11,143 nucleotides of DNA from a virus: UHGV virus genome UHGV-0105484; one strand, written 5' to 3'. Position 1 is the first letter of the stretch; the number at the start of each line of letters is the position of its first letter. The translations under genes were made by a program, and so were the position numbers. The notes below the pieces were generated by a model, which did not search any database, had not been told where the DNA came from, and saw only the letters and a program-made list of their open reading frames with translations. Below, piece by piece: positions 1,453 through 11,143 of the stretch.

Positions 1453-1940
1453 TACGCCCCCACGTAATTCCCTGACAGATACCACTCATCACTCGATACA
1501 GCGCGCTTGCTGCTTTTCCGTAAACACAGCTCACGACGCGCCAGAAATTTGTTTCGTTCTGGCTGGGAGTGGCTTTCACGGAATGCCGCCATCCACACGG
1601 TTGCAGCACGACGGTATAAGCCCCTGGACTCCAGTTCTTCAGCCTGGCGGGTCAGGCACAAAATCACCCGTGGATCGTTAGTGCCGACATAGAAATTGCG
1701 CACAGGTCTGGTTTCTCGAACTGGTTGTGGTTCTGGTTCCTGCGCTCTCTCAGTCAGGCGCGGGAAATGTCTGCGTGTATCTCCTTCACAACGGTGAGCC
1801 ACACGCCCACTCTGACGTAACTTGCTTGCAGACTGCAGAACGCGCTGCCGTGAGTAACCTGCAAAAGCATCCGCAATGTCTCCGGAAGTACACCCCGGAT
1901 GGGCTTCAATGAATTTCTGAACGTCATTTAACAGACTCAT
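1452..1940 (-). CDS. Hypothetical phage protein, N-terminal winged-helix-like region and C-terminal ANR/PerC-like motif
   Basis: 162 aa from ATG 1940 (track start 1946 is GTG). C-terminal segment LTRQAEELESRGLYRRAATVWMAAFRES...ERNKFLARRELCL resembles the small ANR/PerC regulator pattern. Tightly packed between the replication gene and the LexA-like gene. Confidence 0.45.
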   Translation of the reverse strand: MSLLNDVQKFIEAHPGCTSGDIADAFAGYSRQRVLQSASKLRQSGRVAHRCEGDTRRHFPRLTERAQEPEPQPVRETRPVRNFYVGTNDPRVILCLTRQAEELESRGLYRRAATVWMAAFRESHSQPERNKFLARRELCLRKSSKRAVSSDEWYLSGNYVGA

Positions 1941-1942
1941 GA

Positions 1943-2884
1943 TCACCCTCTGAATCCTGCCGGGATCTGGCTGTAGTCCACGTTGTCGTAACTGGCTTTG
2001 AAGTACGGGTCCTCGCGTTTTTCGGTGTACGTGCTGACGGACGGCGATAAGCGCAGGGAAAGCTCATCCCATTTTTCCCGCAGCTTCGACGGGCTGAGCA
2101 CGTTACGGCACCAGAACGGATCGCGGCTGACGCGGCTGTACATCTCGCAGATTTGTTTGTGAGTACGCCCATCCTGTACACACATCAGGCGAATTTCGTT
2201 TGCCCAGGCTGTCCAGTTCGGTTCTTTGGGACGAACCACCTCGCCGTCACATTCGGCAGCCTGCTCGTACAGGGCGATGATTTTTTTCCAGAGCCACTGT
2301 GCGCAGGTCAAATCATCCTGCGTCCCCCACTGGCGCTTTTTAGGGCTGAATACAACCGCATTAGGATGGCGAGTTAAAAAATCCTGTTCAGCCGTCTGCG
2401 TGTCCGGTTGCGAAGCGTCCGGACGAGAAGGTTTTTTATCTGACGGATCATGTTTTGATTTTACTGACGGATCCCCGCCAGATTCTGACGGGTGAAAACC
2501 CGCTTTTTTGCCAGATTTCGACGCATCAAATTTTGACGGGTCAGATTTTGATGCGTCAGATTTTGACGGGTCAGAATCTGACAGTTGAGAAAATGCCGCT
2601 GCCTGAAGCTTCGCAACGTTAAGCTGATAAACATTCGACGCATTGCGGTTACCCTGGCGACGCGCCTTACGCGTTAACCAGCCTTCTGCTTCCAGCCGTG
2701 CGATAGCCGTTCTGACGGTACTCATCCCCGCGCCAATCTGACGGGCAATGGTTTCAATTGATGGCCAGCACACACCTTCGTCATTACTGAAATCAGCCAG
2801 GCGGGCCATAATTGCCACGCTGGATAACTTCATGCCTGATGCAGCGCAACCATCCCATACATAGCCGGTTAATTTAGTGCTCAT
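1943..2884 (-). CDS. Phage replication initiator (lambda O-like; N-terminal HTH, acidic Ser/Asp/Lys repeat linker)
   Basis: 313 aa; SD AGAGG 7 nt upstream of ATG 2884. N-terminus VWDGCAASGMKLSSVAIMARLADFSNDEGVCWPSIETIARQIGAGMSTVRTAIARLEAEGWL is a replication-initiator type HTH. The central SDSDPSKSDASKSDPSKFDASKS repeat is encoded by tandem DNA iterons. Sits after the cII-like gene as O does in lambda. Confidence 0.75.
   Translation of the reverse strand: MSTKLTGYVWDGCAASGMKLSSVAIMARLADFSNDEGVCWPSIETIARQIGAGMSTVRTAIARLEAEGWLTRKARRQGNRNASNVYQLNVAKLQAAAFSQLSDSDPSKSDASKSDPSKFDASKSGKKAGFHPSESGGDPSVKSKHDPSDKKPSRPDASQPDTQTAEQDFLTRHPNAVVFSPKKRQWGTQDDLTCAQWLWKKIIALYEQAAECDGEVVRPKEPNWTAWANEIRLMCVQDGRTHKQICEMYSRVSRDPFWCRNVLSPSKLREKWDELSLRLSPSVSTYTEKREDPYFKASYDNVDYSQIPAGFRG
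2438..2590. repeat. Iteron array inside the replication initiator gene (candidate phage origin of replication)
   Basis: About 8 copies of core TGACGGRTC. 2516-2590 holds five tandem 15-bp units (tttcgacgcatcaaa / ttttgacgggtcaga / ttttgatgcgtcaga / ttttgacgggtcaga / atctgacagttgaga); further copies at about 2441, 2465 and 2485. Units have internal dyad symmetry (tctgac..gtcaga). Analogous to lambda ori iterons inside gene O. Confidence 0.6.
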
Positions 2885-2893
2885 GACCGACCT

Positions 2894-3232
2894 CTATTTC
2901 CCTGAATTTACGACGAAACTGTTCGAGCGGACTGAAGCATTCATGCTCATAACCTTCGCGGAGGTAGATAACCCGTTGTGTTTCCGGCTCCCAACGAATG
3001 ACTCTGACGGGCACTCCGTAGTGATCTTTGAACCAGCGGTTAACTTGTCGCAAAGGACTGTCTCCTTCTGCCGGTTGAAATCACCCACAGCCCACTCTGC
3101 AAAGCTGTGGGTTACAATTTCCCTGTCACCTGGTACATTCACTGCATAGCAATATTCCACCTTCGCTTTTCCACCCGGTAAAGGAAGCGCAATCAGTTGC
3201 GAGCGACGGTAGTGTGTTGTTAAACTGTTCAT
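2894..3232 (-). CDS. Hypothetical protein (uncertain ORF between cII-like and replication genes)
   Basis: 112-aa ORF whose ATG (3232-3230) overlaps the upstream stop (ATGA). Composition is not strongly protein-like and no recognisable motif; kept at low confidence. Confidence 0.3.
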
Positions 3233-3798
3233 GCGTTAGTTTCTCCACAACCAGAAGCAATCGACGCCACGACGCCCGGAGCTGCACACTCGCGGGCGTC
3301 ATTACTTTCTGAAATGCAAAAAATTTTGTAGACAAGTGCTGCATGCTCCTGCAGCTTCGAAATTGAGAGATACAGCTCGTCGTTAATTGCTGTCTTCTCA
3401 TGCGGTTCCACTACACCGTCTTCGATTGCTGAACGAATCTGTTTTGAATAACTGCCGATCTGTTCAATGACTTCCAGCAGACGCTGGTTAATATCGGCGT
3501 TGTCCACATCCTCGACGTCAGGAAGAGACACAAAGACGCCATTTGCAGACTGCGCCACAGCATCAGCAATGAAGTGAGTGCCACCAGCACGCTGTAAAAC
3601 CATTGCCCATCCCAGCGGGAAAATCTGATCGCCATCTGCACGAAGGCGGTTGAATAAAGCGTTTTCTGTTACATCGAGCCAGTCAGCCGCTTCAGCGTAA
3701 CCACCCGGCAACGCCGCGATAGTTTTTCTGACAGCTTTCACGTACCACTCAGGCTGTTTTTCTATTTTCCAGTGATGCTTACCCACGATTAGCCTCAT
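3229..3798 (-). CDS. CII-like phage regulatory protein
   Basis: 189-aa ORF immediately downstream of the cro-like gene on the same strand, the lambda cII position. ATG 3798 lacks an SD; an in-frame GTG 12 nt downstream is preceded by GAGG and may be the true start. Family assignment by position and general resemblance only. Confidence 0.5.
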
Positions 3799-5657: not shown

Positions 5658-5709
5658 GTTGTTGGGGATAACCAGATTAACCGAATCCTTGTTGTTGGGG
5701 AATAACCAG
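5658..5709. repeat. Two direct repeats (18/19 bp) upstream of the 144-aa gene
   Basis: gttgttggggataaccag (5658-5675) and gttgttggggaataaccag (5691-5709), identical except for one inserted A, 33 bp apart, just upstream of the minus-strand SD/ATG at 5642. Confidence 0.55.
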
Positions 5710-6059
5710 GTCCACCTCGCCTGATGTGGCTAAAAGCAGGCACATAACAGCTAAGTATTTTCAACCAGAGAGAATTCTTAGCGTTGTGGTGAATGCGGCT
5801 CAGCGCACGCGGGTTAAGGTTGAGGCTGACAGTCGACCTTCTGTGGATACCCACCCGCCTGGTGTGCAACCTTCGCCAGGCACCGGGAGGCACCCGGCAC
5901 CACAACTTTATGCTGTGTTTTTACAAAACAGAGAAGAGCATCACCGGACGACGGGCTCATAACCCAATCCATCCGGGCGGCTGCCACCGCAGGTGTTCTT
6001 CTCTATTTTGTGGAGAAACTAATCGGCCTTGCAGGGTCGATATGATGAGGAGCAGCAAA

Positions 6060-7988: not shown

Positions 7989-8031
7989 CTAGTGAAATAG
8001 TTTTGTAGCAAAAGAAATGAGGTTATCAAAA

Positions 8032-8277
8032 ATGCTTCAAATGCTGACACTTGAGGAATGGGCTGCGGAAAAATTTAGGAGTAATCCTCCAAGTGTGTCC
8101 ACATTGCGTCGTTATGCTAAGCAGAATTTATTTTGTCCACCGGCAATGAAACAAGGTCGACTATGGCGAGTGCGTGAGGACGCAGAGTTAGTTGGGGAAT
8201 TAGTTACTCCTGTCATCAAGAAAAGTGATTCTATTATTCTACAAAGGATTTTAAGTAATGGCAGCCAGACCACGTAA
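8032..8277 (+). CDS. xis: Excisionase (lambda Xis family)
   Basis: MLQMLTLEEWAAEKFRSNPPSVSTLRRYAKQNLFCPPAMKQGRLWRVREDAELV... parallels lambda Xis (MYLTLQEWNARQRRPRSLETVRRWVRECRIFPPPVKDGREYLFHESAVKV). 3' end overlaps int by 20 nt, as in lambda. Alternative in-frame ATGs at 8017 and 8041. Confidence 0.8.
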   Translation: MLQMLTLEEWAAEKFRSNPPSVSTLRRYAKQNLFCPPAMKQGRLWRVREDAELVGELVTPVIKKSDSIILQRILSNGSQTT

Positions 8278-9385
8278 AAATAATGTTTCAGTCCCGAACT
8301 TGTATCCGCTCTATAGCAGAAAAGTAAATAAAGTCTATTGGCGATATAAGCATCCAGTGACCGGGAAGTTTCATTCTTTGGGCACAAACGAAGCTGAAGC
8401 CATTGCTATTGCCACTGAGGCCAATACACGCCTAGCTGAGCAAAGAACCCGGCAGATTCTGGCTATCAGTGACAGGATCGCAACCAGCAAAGGAAAAGCA
8501 ATCACAACGTCAACCTGGTTAGATCGCTATCAAGCAATCCAAGATGACAGACTGAAAAGTGGCGATATAAAGCTCAATACCTATAAACAGAAAGCCAAAC
8601 CAGTATCCTTGCTCAGGGAACGAGCAGGAATGAAGTTTATTTCATCCGTTGATGTAAGGGATATCGCACAATTGCTTGACGAGTATATCACCGCCGGGCA
8701 ACCGAGGATGGCGCAAGTAGTCCGCTCCGTTCTAATTGATGTATTCAAGGAGGCACAACACTATGGGGAAGTCCCTCCGGGCTATAATCCAGCACTGGCA
8801 ACCAAACAACCCAGAAGAAAAATTACCCGACAACGGTTAAGTCTTGAAGAATGGCAAAAAATCTTTGATATTGCAGATGCCAGTCATCGTTATATGGGGA
8901 ATGCCATGCTGTTAGCACTGGTTACCGCCCAGCGGTTAGGTGATATCTCACGTATGAAATTTAGCGATATTTGGGATGATCATCTTCACGTCATCCAAGA
9001 AAAAACAGGGAGCAAAATCGCCATCCCACTTTCCCTTCGCCTCAATGCGATTAACTGGAGTTTACGCGATGTAATAGCCCGCTGCCGTGACTATGCAGTC
9101 AGCCCATACCTGGTGCATTTTTTCCGTTCAACTTCACAAGCAGAACGTGGGGCACAGGTTAAATCCAATACATTGACGACGAATTTCAGTAAAGCGAGGG
9201 ATTTGGCAGAAATCGACTGGGGTGATGGCACACCCGCAACATTCCATGAACAAAGGTCTTTATCTGAGCGACTTTACGAAGCTCAGGGTGTCGACACCCA
9301 AAAACTTCTGGGGCATAAATCGCCTAATCAAACCGCTCGCTACCACGATGATCGCGGAAAGGAATGGATAAAGATTCAAAACTAG
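8258..9385 (+). CDS. int: Lambda-family tyrosine integrase
   Basis: 375 aa. N-terminus has an arm-binding-type region (PNLYPLYSRKVNKVYWRYKHPVTGKFHSLG). C-terminal catalytic motifs: Arg in TAQRLGD, HEQRSLSERLY (His-x-x-Arg box) and LLGHKSPNQTARYHDDRGKEW (Tyr nucleophile). Confidence 0.9.
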   Translation: MAARPRKNNVSVPNLYPLYSRKVNKVYWRYKHPVTGKFHSLGTNEAEAIAIATEANTRLAEQRTRQILAISDRIATSKGKAITTSTWLDRYQAIQDDRLKSGDIKLNTYKQKAKPVSLLRERAGMKFISSVDVRDIAQLLDEYITAGQPRMAQVVRSVLIDVFKEAQHYGEVPPGYNPALATKQPRRKITRQRLSLEEWQKIFDIADASHRYMGNAMLLALVTAQRLGDISRMKFSDIWDDHLHVIQEKTGSKIAIPLSLRLNAINWSLRDVIARCRDYAVSPYLVHFFRSTSQAERGAQVKSNTLTTNFSKARDLAEIDWGDGTPATFHEQRSLSERLYEAQGVDTQKLLGHKSPNQTARYHDDRGKEWIKIQN

Positions 9386-9398
9386 CGTAATTTATTTG

Positions 9399-9827
9399 TT
9401 AATTTCTAATAGACAAAAGGACTATTTGAATAACAATAAATATAATTTGTATTAAAGTTACAACTGCAAGAGTTAATGTAAGCGATGCGATAAAGTAGGT
9501 TTTAATACTTGAAAGACAAAGCAATGATAATAAAAGAGTAATACCAAGTTGAATAAAGCATACAAAATAAAAGATCATTGCGCCCTGTAAATATCCGTGT
9601 GCCCTAAATCTTTGTATGTTAGCATTATCTAAAGAAGTTAATATGACAATAAGAGCAAAAATGAGCGCCATCATTGCTGTCGCATACGATGCTAAAGCTG
9701 AACCAAGACCATCTAGATGTTCTTTGAAATTTACCCCCGGTAGAATATCATAGCGATATTTGTACACGCCAAAGCCAATAGCGTTTGTCATAATCGTTAA
9801 AACCACGGGGGGAAACCATTTAATCAT
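9399..9827 (-). CDS. RexB-like small integral membrane protein (4 predicted TM helices)
   Basis: 142 aa from ATG 9827, which lies 1 nt after the upstream stop (TGAnATG); the track's longer start is 9857. Four hydrophobic segments. Motif LPGVNFKEHLDGLGSALASYATAMMALIFAL matches lambda RexB as recalled (IPGVSFSAHRDGLGATLSSYAGTMIAIL); size matches RexB (144 aa). AT-rich. Confidence 0.6.
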   Translation of the reverse strand: MIKWFPPVVLTIMTNAIGFGVYKYRYDILPGVNFKEHLDGLGSALASYATAMMALIFALIVILTSLDNANIQRFRAHGYLQGAMIFYFVCFIQLGITLLLSLLCLSSIKTYFIASLTLTLAVVTLIQIIFIVIQIVLLSIRN

Positions 9828-9828
9828 T

Positions 9829-10644
9829 TCAGTATCCAGCAGCCCTAAGATCTGCATTATTAATAAAGTTAGTTACCATTTGGCTCTCTATAGATATATT
9901 TGCGTTTTTATTGACTATATCATAGATGCCACCCGTTGTCGCGACATGAAGCTCAATCGCTTGGTCTCCTAGCGCTTGCTTCGCCGCTATTGTCATTTCA
10001 CGGATACCTGCTGGTAAGTTGTTTAATGTTGGACTAATGGTATCCTTAATGTTTTTAAGATGTTTTGGTTTAATAGTAATTTCAAAACTGTCTACATCAT
10101 TAAGATCAACAGCTGTTATACCAAGAAAATTTGTCATCTCCCTTAACGCGAAAGGAGAATTAGGTTCTAATTTTACATTGATTTTCCCCATATGTGCATA
10201 CTGCAATGCCTGGGCTGGCGTAACAGTTTTCTTGATGGGCTCAAATCTTATATTTCTATTGTTATTCGTATTAAAGAAAAAGTTGTCATAATATTTACCA
10301 AAAGAGCCAATTTTGGGACCAAAGAGAGTCGAGCCATACCCTACACAACGATTAGAAATGTAAATATATGAGGCAAAAGCAACGTCCTGATTTTGTTGCA
10401 GCAATGCCGTAATGTCCTGGTAGTTGTTATTAACTCTATCGATGGTTTTTATAATGTCTGTATTATTTGTTTTTAAAAACATAAATACATCACCCAATAT
10501 ATGATGTATCGAGTAATACGAACCATCTAACCTAACTGTTTGTGTGTTGCTCTGAATGAGTTGCAGAAAAGAAGAGCTAAGAGAACTCGCAAGAGGTTGC
10601 CCGTTTTGCGGATAAAGATCATATTTGTAATAATTCGTTTTCAT
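9829..10644 (-). CDS. RexA-like soluble protein (271 aa)
   Basis: Complete ORF from ATG 10644 in a roughly 30% GC island. Size and position (upstream of and coupled to the membrane gene) match lambda RexA (279 aa). Recalled RexA motifs have counterparts: Y-x-Y-I-H, F-x-F-x-KTN (FMFLKTNN), T-x-FGP (STLFGP), I-x-IKPK (EITIKPK). Not confirmed by database search. Confidence 0.6.
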   Translation of the reverse strand: MKTNYYKYDLYPQNGQPLASSLSSSFLQLIQSNTQTVRLDGSYYSIHHILGDVFMFLKTNNTDIIKTIDRVNNNYQDITALLQQNQDVAFASYIYISNRCVGYGSTLFGPKIGSFGKYYDNFFFNTNNNRNIRFEPIKKTVTPAQALQYAHMGKINVKLEPNSPFALREMTNFLGITAVDLNDVDSFEITIKPKHLKNIKDTISPTLNNLPAGIREMTIAAKQALGDQAIELHVATTGGIYDIVNKNANISIESQMVTNFINNADLRAAGY

Positions 10645-10712
10645 CCCTAATCATCTTATGATTTATTGTAGGTAAACCTATTCTCTTCATTATGTGTTCA
10701 AAATCAATCGTT

Positions 10713-10744
10713 TTGATAAATTTTTTTGATAAATCTTTGATAAC
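10713..10744. promoter_or_regulatory. Three tandem TTGATAA repeats upstream of the rexA-like gene, near the icd junction
   Basis: ttgataaa (10713-10720), ttgataaa (10726-10733), ttgataac (10737-10744), spaced 13 and 11 bp, in the 160-bp gap between the rexA-like start and the icd stop. Confidence 0.4.
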
Positions 10745-10811: not shown

Positions 10812-11143
10812 TTACATATTTTCGATGATCGCATCACCAAACTCTGAACATTTCAGCAGTTTAGCGCCTTCCATCAAACGTTCGAAGTCATAGGTTACGG
10901 TCTTCGCATTGATTGCGCCTTCCATACCTTTAACAATCAGGTCTGCGGCTTCGGTCCAACCCATGTGGCGTAACATCATCTCAGCAGAGAGAATAATAGA
11001 GCCTGGGTTAACTTTGTCCTGACCGGCATATTTCGGCGCAGTACCGTGGGTAGCTTCAAACAGGGCGCATTCGTCACCGATGTTTGCGCCAGGGGCGATA
11101 CCGATACCGCCAACCTGCGCTGCCAGGGCGTCAGAAATGTAGT
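10812..11143 (-). CDS. icd: Isocitrate dehydrogenase (NADP), C-terminal fragment; prophage attachment target
   Basis: Minus-strand translation reads ...[96 protein letters not shown], the enterobacterial Icd C-terminus. Host-like GC content, unlike the adjacent AT-rich island. Confidence 0.95.

Follow-up and report, generated by a model that had tools for sequence, protein, structure and literature searches.

The DNA analysed here, a stretch of 11,143 nucleotides from UHGV virus genome UHGV-0105484 (hereafter the window), is an e14/SfII-type lambdoid prophage at icd. An S24 cI-type repressor is encoded on the plus strand, and the minus strand carries, in this order, cro, a cII-like gene (ymfL), a DUF4222 gene, the replication initiator gene rep, a PerC-like gene, a LexA_DNA_bind-like gene and RusA; farther along the window lie xis, int, RexB/RexA homologues and an icd fragment. 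The order and orientation of the genes around rep are those of a lambdoid early operon. This study concerns rep and a cluster of repeats at 2438-2590, which an earlier note had proposed as an iteron array and candidate phage origin. As that note had recognized, the cluster occupies the middle of the rep open reading frame (ORF) and encodes a linker of Ser, Asp and Lys residues. The linker (SDSDPSKSDASKSDPSKFDASKSG...HPSESGGDPSVKSKHDPSDKK) has an SD(P/A)SK pattern; the coding-strand translation of 2438-2590 reads SDSDPSK SDASK SDPSK FDASK SGKKAGFHPSESGGDPSVKSKHDPSDKK.

The initiator belongs to PHROG 391, 'replication initiation O-like' (PHROGs profile search, E 3e-135), and its gene is 98-99% identical at the nucleotide level to genes annotated as 'replication protein/O/primosomal protein' in the Shigella phages SfII and SfIV. 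An AlphaFold2 model built with 57 relatives contains two folded domains separated by a linker (residues 103-158) without secondary structure and with a predicted local distance difference test (pLDDT) score below 50. The N-terminal domain (N-domain) consists of helices (residues 3-66) and a beta-hairpin wing (70-74/84-88) at a pLDDT of ~80-89. It matches Pfam HTH_36 at residues 23-70 (E 4e-11), with weaker matches to GntR, MarR and DnaD_N. Its best folds in a Foldseek search against the PDB are MarR/ArsR-type winged-helix DNA binders, all weak (best E 3e-3), and a sequence search of solved structures likewise yielded weak MarR-type matches only. The C-terminal domain (C-domain), modelled with confidence over residues 162-280, shares 36% identity over 112 amino acids with phi80 gp15 (BLASTP, E 8e-25) and is matched by the PHROG profiles 'DnaD-like helicase loader' and 'replisome organizer'; Pfam and NCBIfam gave no match to it, and Foldseek against the PDB no informative one. 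No match of the initiator to Phage_rep_O (PF04492) was obtained in Pfam, in which phi80 gp15 scores 6e-25 in a like test. Judged by these profiles, the initiator is O-like by architecture alone and its N-domain lies outside the lambda O family, so that the designation of the gene as O-like in the earlier note holds for the architecture and fails for the family (HTH_36, not Phage_rep_O). No P-, DnaC- or DnaB-like gene lies directly downstream of rep in the window; the PerC-like, LexA_DNA_bind-like and RusA genes are found there instead. The features of the locus are collected in Table 1.

Table 1. Positions of rep and of the features within it, numbered along the window
Feature	Position	Strand	Remarks
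Replication initiator gene (rep) with embedded candidate origin	1943-2884	minus	313 amino acids; ORF list and translation
N-terminal winged-helix DNA-binding domain, presumed repeat reader	2591-2884	minus	residues 1-98; AlphaFold2, Pfam
Candidate iteron array, TCARAATCTGAC five times in tandem with a period of 15 bp	2510-2581	minus	encodes SD(P/A)SK repeats
Sixth, isolated 12-mer copy TCAGAATCTGGC	2477-2488	minus	33 bp from the tandem set; conserved across 69 genes
Conserved DNA block, consensus TTTTnACCCgnCAGaATCTGGnGGgGATCCGTcAGTAAatTCAAaacaaGAtCCAtcAgnnAaaaaa	2432-2497	minus	isolated 12-mer and two further CCGTCAG half-sites
Candidate unwinding region, 40-bp windows with the highest AT content in the gene	2426-2467		GC 0.30; windows start at 2426 and 2428
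Apparent mosaic joint between specificity module (N-domain and repeats) and C-terminal module	2402-2439	minus	partial nucleotide matches
C-terminal folded domain, presumed replisome-recruiting part	2036-2404	minus	about residues 161-283; AlphaFold2 pLDDT 83-94
Tail SQIPAGFRG	1946-1972	minus	8/9 identical to the E. coli DnaT end SQIPPGFRG, both at the extreme C-terminus

Repeats, conserved block and AT-rich flank

The repeat core described in the earlier note, TGACGGRTC, is present in four exact copies (2441, 2465, 2534 and 2564) where 0.16 are expected, and none of 200 shuffled sequences reached four. The figure of about eight copies given there requires one or two mismatches (2486, 2519, 2549 and others), and with up to two mismatches the core is not enriched, the whole window containing 49 matches against 43 expected. 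The core had also been written on the plus strand, whereas the gene runs on the minus strand. Five perfect 15-bp tandem units could not be recovered either: Tandem Repeats Finder reports 2512-2575 with a period of 15, 4.3 copies and 81% matches (88% with a period of 30), and the 15-bp units share 73-87% identity pairwise. The exact-core register was dropped because of the missing enrichment in favour of a better-fitting one, which consists of the 12-mer TCARAATCTGAC on the coding (minus) strand and a variable 3-nt spacer, the triplet nCn; when homologues are compared codon by codon, the invariant part of the repeat straddles the unit junction.

In this register, 12-mers at 2570-2581, 2555-2566, 2540-2551, 2525-2536 and 2510-2521 form the tandem array, and the conserved block opens with a near-palindrome, CCGTCAGAATCTGGCGG, that contains the sixth copy. 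The window contains 14 matches to TCARAATCTGAC with up to two mismatches, a 7-fold excess over the 1.98 expected that none of 200 shuffles attained. Ten of these matches fall in the cluster because the site is nearly palindromic, and there is no second cluster of the motif in the 11-kb window. A perfect palindrome of 13 bp, GTCAGAATCTGAC, occupies 2570-2582. In every 15-bp unit there are two TYTGAC-like hexamers in inverted orientation, 7-8 bp apart; the TGACGG part of the earlier core corresponds to this hexamer. The six copies of TCARAATCTGAC are direct repeats that each have dyad symmetry, and their spacing in the array, a 12-bp site and a 3-bp spacer, amounts to ~1.4 helical turns. An assignment to the classical plasmid-type iterons (~17-22 bp, spaced ~22 bp in helical phase) was rejected, as the unit measures 15 bp. 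Together, the repeats at 2432-2581 encode residues 102-151 and coincide with the linker predicted to be disordered by AlphaFold2.

A scan of one genome per species identified 76 loci with this N-domain (69-100% amino acid identity) in Shigella, Citrobacter, Kosakonia, Buttiauxella, Yersinia, Providencia, Proteus, Rahnella, Erwinia, Pantoea and others. Complete, usable genes were obtained from 69 loci, and the counts below refer to these. The repeats occur in 69/69 of these Enterobacterales genes, with ~3-10 units each, and in 7/7 phages with this N-domain that were compared codon by codon.

The conserved block comprises 66 bp downstream of the array and encodes F(H/D)PSESGGDPSVKS..DPSD. It is more rigid than the array and mostly non-palindromic, and its 3' half is overlapped by the most AT-rich 40-bp windows of the gene. 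The 40-bp window of lowest GC lies at the same position, just downstream of the array, in 58/69 homologues (median GC 0.30, gene GC 0.53). A GATC site inside the AT-rich stretch (2446-2449) is kept in 69/69 genes and another just outside it (2470-2473) in 60/69, as derived from the counts of GAT CCG and GAT CCA codons. A methylase is often the downstream neighbour of rep in the relatives; a Dam-type methylase gene directly follows rep in many of them (L002, L003, L004, L005 and L008), not in the window. Methylation may be linked to origin use.

The codons used in the repeats were compared with those in N-domain columns of the same 69 genes in which one residue is common to at least 90%. A position weight matrix of 359 units gave the unit consensus TCT GAC nCn TCA AAA, in which G4, A5, T10 and C11 are invariant. 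Its fourth codon, Ser, is TCA in 310/359 units (86%) as opposed to 28/336 (8%) in the N-domain (Fisher p 1e-106). Lys is encoded by AAA 243 times and by AAG once, compared with 127 and 79 times in the N-domain (p 4e-30), and Asp by GAC 227 and GAT 53 times, compared with 110 and 97 (p 6e-11). Among the units the middle codon varies freely and specifies Pro, Ala, Thr, Gly, Val or Arg. The block is fixed to a still higher degree: Val is GTA in 68/68 genes (N-domain 21/137), Asp is GAT in 69/69, Phe is TTT in 67/67, and all Ser codons are TCA (59/59, 64/64 and 55/55). Where amino acids are replaced in the block, bases are retained, TCA changing to TTA or CCA. Third positions at pairwise identical residues agree at 0.90 in the block versus 0.45 in the N-domain (0.87 versus 0.41 for distant pairs), and synonymous sites of the N-domain are near saturation in these genes, yet amino acid identity is lower in the block (0.76) than in the N-domain (0.80). 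Since synonymous sites are frozen while the amino acids of the repeats vary, selection on the repeats and the block is, by codon comparison, exerted on DNA and not on protein. Drift combined with homogenisation within the array would fix lineage-specific codons; this is not seen.

These numbers bear on the idea that the segment is a low-complexity protein linker generated by replication slippage, or else part of an overlapping gene, and has no function as DNA. The copy number does vary among relatives as slippage predicts, the segment is disordered, and other frames are open across the array. Slippage alone, in contrast, accounts neither for frozen synonymous positions next to varying amino acids nor for the fixation of the rare codons TCA and GTA in repeats and block, and a sister family (mEp460 type, described below) possesses one repeat copy that is out of frame. 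An ORF overlapping the array was rejected, as the alternative-frame ORFs range from 32 to 168 codons and lack an ATG in some genes; apart from the free nCn triplet, conservation has no codon periodicity in any frame. We regard an explanation of this kind as very unlikely.

Equally slight is the chance that the constraint concerns the transcript or single-stranded DNA, with the self-complementary array folding into a cruciform, or into a hairpin by which the translation or the stability of rep mRNA is controlled. The corresponding 181-nt RNA has a predicted folding energy of -55.2 kcal/mol, compared with a shuffle mean of -36.7 (z = -5.35), and 0/200 shuffles are as stable. Arrays of palindromic units, however, fold in this way automatically. 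No fixed structure is kept among genes with 3-10 units, the most conserved part, the block, is mostly non-palindromic, and Rfam gave no match in the window. The paired positions are invariant, so covariation can lend no support.

Mosaic structure of the initiator genes

Partial nucleotide matches divide rep into two parts. In phiNP, Flotzy and LLS the match is confined to query positions 460-942 (window 2402-2884), which comprise the N-domain and the repeats. YeP likewise has only this part in common with rep, and all four continue with an unrelated C-domain, Phg_2220_C. Conversely, mEp460 matches only query positions 1-497 (window 1943-2439), the C-terminal module, at 97% nucleotide identity, and HannyBb has a 74% match to part of the same module. 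The N-only and C-only relatives overlap in a stretch of 38 bp that codes for KPSRPDASQPD and looks like a recombination joint between the two modules.

Each N-domain type is accompanied by repeats of its own. In mEp460 and HannyBb, which have another N-domain, the linker contains four copies of TCCATYGGNTCAAAA at spacings of 23, 46 and 24 bp. One of the copies is in a different reading frame, and such a repeat can exist only at the DNA level. A scan of viral_contigs for this sister family returned just two identity classes (100% and ~80%), a diversity that supports only the out-of-frame copy. SfV orf39 gives a distant tblastn match like that of the mEp460/HannyBb type (39% over N-domain residues 25-90). 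In phi80 gp15, an N-domain of the lambda O type (PF04492) is joined to a homologous C-domain, and four internal gp15 sites are annotated. One type of C-domain thus bears three types of N-domain, each of which brings internal repeats of its own in the same location, and the N-domain found in the window is always accompanied by the repeats described here, on at least two unrelated C-domains. The repeats are independent of the upstream and downstream genes, which vary among relatives. According to these alignments, the type of repeat follows the N-domain and not the C-domain, and the N-domain and repeats together would form a separate replication-specificity module.

This co-inheritance also makes it improbable that a reader other than the initiator (a host factor, SeqA/Dam at GATC or another phage protein) recognizes the DNA or that the DNA is a patch of homology for recombination. 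The conserved GATC sites and the Dam-type methylase after rep in many relatives would suit a different reader, and the mosaic joint adjoining the block would suit a recombination patch. The type of repeat, however, switches with the type of N-domain and not with neighbouring genes or the C-domain, and recombination would not call for palindromic sites arranged in tandem and set apart by a free 3-nt spacer.

Two E. coli chromosomes contain complementary remnants of the initiator, L061/L082 (~1.20 Mb) and L084/L085 (~2.44-2.47 Mb). Residues 1-79 are fused to an unrelated 455-codon ORF (the fusion of e14 ymfN to a terminase), and residues 79 to the end, together with the array, are located at a second prophage site. 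Their common breakpoint suggests an old rearrangement between two prophages.

The candidate origin and its comparison with known systems

The repeats are probably the initiator-binding iterons of a prophage replication origin that lies inside the gene of its own initiator. This reading is based on the conservation of the DNA, the co-inheritance with the N-domain, the conserved position of the AT minimum and the lambdoid order of the operon. The computations have thereby favoured the proposal of the earlier note, in that the repeats coincide with a disordered linker, have frozen synonymous sites, are universally present among the homologues, travel with the N-domain and adjoin the AT minimum. 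The same reasoning has been accepted for the origins of lambda, P22 and L (PMC8022706).

In the proposed mechanism, the initiator would be produced by transcription of the early rightward-type operon (cro, the cII-like gene, DUF4222 and rep; minus strand), and its N-domains would bind the nearly palindromic 12-mers, probably as dimers. A multimeric initiator complex on the array may then destabilise the adjacent AT-rich stretch, and the C-domain may recruit host DnaB, with or without DnaC and with or without the DnaT-like tail. A phage-encoded P-type loader would not be involved, because none is encoded beside rep. The SD(P/A)SK repeat would largely follow from what is required of the DNA and would be tolerated in the protein because the segment is a flexible linker.

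Binding of the initiator could alternatively serve mainly for autoregulation or copy control by roadblock or titration, with the strands of the phage being opened elsewhere. Plasmid iterons serve both initiation and control. DNA conservation and co-inheritance with the N-domain would fit any initiator-binding role, and the AT-rich stretch beside the array is only moderate. Set against this are the AT minimum adjoining the array in 58/69 genes, the lack of a second cluster of the 12-mer motif in the 11-kb window, and the precedent that internal repeats are the origin in lambda and phi80 (phi80 annotation; PMC8022706). We consider a mainly regulatory role of the repeats to have a low probability.

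Several points weigh against the identification of the array as an origin. Binding and origin activity in this family are predicted from sequence comparison. The period of 15 bp (~1.4 turns) departs from the spacing of about two turns, which is 21 bp in phi80 and 23-24 bp in the mEp460 type, and Pfam places the N-domain outside the lambda O family. With no loader gene beside rep, the way in which the helicase would be loaded is conjectural. The AT-rich stretch is modest: its GC is 0.30-0.35, a level of 0.35 or less being found in 17% of the 40-bp windows of the 11 kb. Finally, the very stable hairpin predicted for the array (z = -5.35) leaves a small probability for a structural role in RNA or single-stranded DNA.

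Among known systems, lambda provides a close parallel in layout, since its ori consists of dyad-symmetric repeats in the linker-coding part of the initiator gene O (PMC8022706 and general knowledge). In both cases an AT-rich stretch, only moderately so in rep, lies downstream of the repeats and the gene follows cro and cII in the early operon. Lambda differs in its Phage_rep_O N-domain as opposed to HTH_36, in four repeats of ~20 bp as opposed to five or six 12-mers at a 15-bp period, and in the adjacent gene for a P-type loader, which is missing here, where the C-domain is of the phi80 type. The description of the locus in the earlier note as a lambda arrangement with a different iteron sequence and period is apt. 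Phage phi80 (JX871397) shares the homologous C-domain and the location of the repeats between N- and C-domains (four annotated gp15 sites in gene 15), and differs by the PF04492 N-domain, TTCCCGAAAACGGGAA-like iterons at a 21-bp period, a P-like gene 14 downstream and the absence of a GFRG tail. The initiators of mEp460 and HannyBb ('primosomal protein I' and 'replication initiation O-like') have the C-module, the architecture and linker repeats in common with rep, whereas their N-domain is unrelated at the Pfam level and their four TCCATYGGNTCAAAA copies include the one out of frame.

Origins built from repeats inside the coding region of an origin-binding protein, each protein with repeats of its own, have been described for lambda, P22 and L, and that of phage L, within gene 18, was inferred from sequence alone (PMC8022706). 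The P22 and phage L gene 18 origins resemble the present case in this respect; their proteins belong to other families, phage L has six copies of the 11-bp TGTCCAACGGA, and the initiator is paired with a DnaB-type helicase gene. A winged-helix N-domain that reads direct repeats is also a feature of the DnaD-like replisome organizers of Firmicute phages and of the Rep proteins of iteron plasmids. SPP1 G38P and TP901-1 ORF13 are examples of such organizers. The weak Pfam DnaD_N match and the PHROG names are shared with the DnaD-like organizers, but the Pfam models of their C-domains do not match. In the report of the SfIV genome, orf41-45 are labelled only as 'replication module' (PMC3851460). 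A description of these repeats, their binding or their origin activity was not found in the literature searched, in which subscription journals are thinly covered.

If the assignment is correct, a concrete origin and an iteron consensus (TCARAATCTGAC, 15-bp period) can be attributed to a very common type of initiator, which has 2374 database relatives, is found in SfII, SfIV and prophages across Enterobacterales, and has left an N-terminal remnant in e14 of E. coli K-12. This would be of use in predicting the compatibility or exclusion of co-resident prophages, in building phage-derived replicons and in correcting annotations such as 'primosomal protein I' or 'GntR regulator'. Lambdoid replication as generally understood is unchanged by it, and specialists would expect an origin of this sort. 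The architecture is already known from lambda, phi80, P22 and L. What is distinct here is the HTH_36 N-domain, the sequence of the sites, their 15-bp spacing and the absence of a loader gene; the features that deserve attention are the clean signal at the nucleotide level, the unusual geometry and the tail resembling that of DnaT.

The DnaT-like tail and other features of the window

The last residues of the initiator resemble the end of DnaT (primosomal protein I) of E. coli K-12, with an E value of 0.009 for the pair (BLASTP). An identity with DnaT was rejected, as just the last nine residues align. Residues G310, F311 and R312 are invariant in the 57 relatives, and a tail of the form (I/V)PxGFR(G/S) is present in 43/69 relatives, on two unrelated types of C-domain. 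The initiator gp15 of phi80, where a P-like partner gene is present, lacks the GFRG tail, and searching solved structures by sequence gave no match to the tail. This distribution hints at a borrowed docking motif, and the tail probably explains why the gene is labelled 'primosomal protein I' in some records. A more far-reaching and rather doubtful idea is that initiators without a loader gene recruit the host helicase machinery through the DnaT-like tail, and that the 15-bp array with its inverted hexamers would support a filament-like assembly instead of an O-some. Should the tail bind the partner of the DnaT tail, the phage origin would plug straight into the replication-restart route for loading DnaB/DnaC.

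Matches in a plasmid collection come either from prophages within large records or from complete phage genomes deposited as circular 'plasmids' of 37-64 kb. They give no independent evidence for plasmid-type replication, and this reading was discarded. Two circular records of unnamed plasmids of 37-41 kb, NZ_CP081716.1 (L168) and CP085522.1, bear this replication module. In the 7.4 kb of NZ_CP081716.1 that were examined only phage genes are found; the record is classified as non-mobilizable by MOB-suite, and no plasmid replicon is listed for it.

Promoter prediction for 1900-3300 gave no internal promoter. On the plus strand, a terminator-like hairpin (CGGGTGAAAACCCG, with CTTTTTTG after it) is located at 2489-2502, antisense to the initiator and between array and block; its upstream arm is within a spacer that is variable among homologues. 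Near-consensus DnaA boxes (TTATCCACA, up to one mismatch) are absent from rep and its immediate surroundings. In the window as a whole they are enriched, with 10 against 2.96 expected and 0/200 shuffles reaching 10; a stretch of 355 bp (5663-6017) contains four of them, and the others are at 441, 3241, 3500, 3804, 5140 and 10607.

At the end of the prophage, homologues of RexB and RexA, an abortive-infection pair, are situated between the integrase and the icd 3' fragment, and just inside this pair are xis and an int of the lambda type that includes an arm-binding domain. The coordinates of this region are 9399-10644 (minus strand), 8017-9385 (plus strand) and 10812-10979 (minus strand). Just inside the icd fragment and attachment (att) region, a tandem repeat, AATCTTTTTGATA, extends over 10706-10743 (2.5 copies, 85% matches), for which integrase arm-type or other att-site repeats are one possibility.

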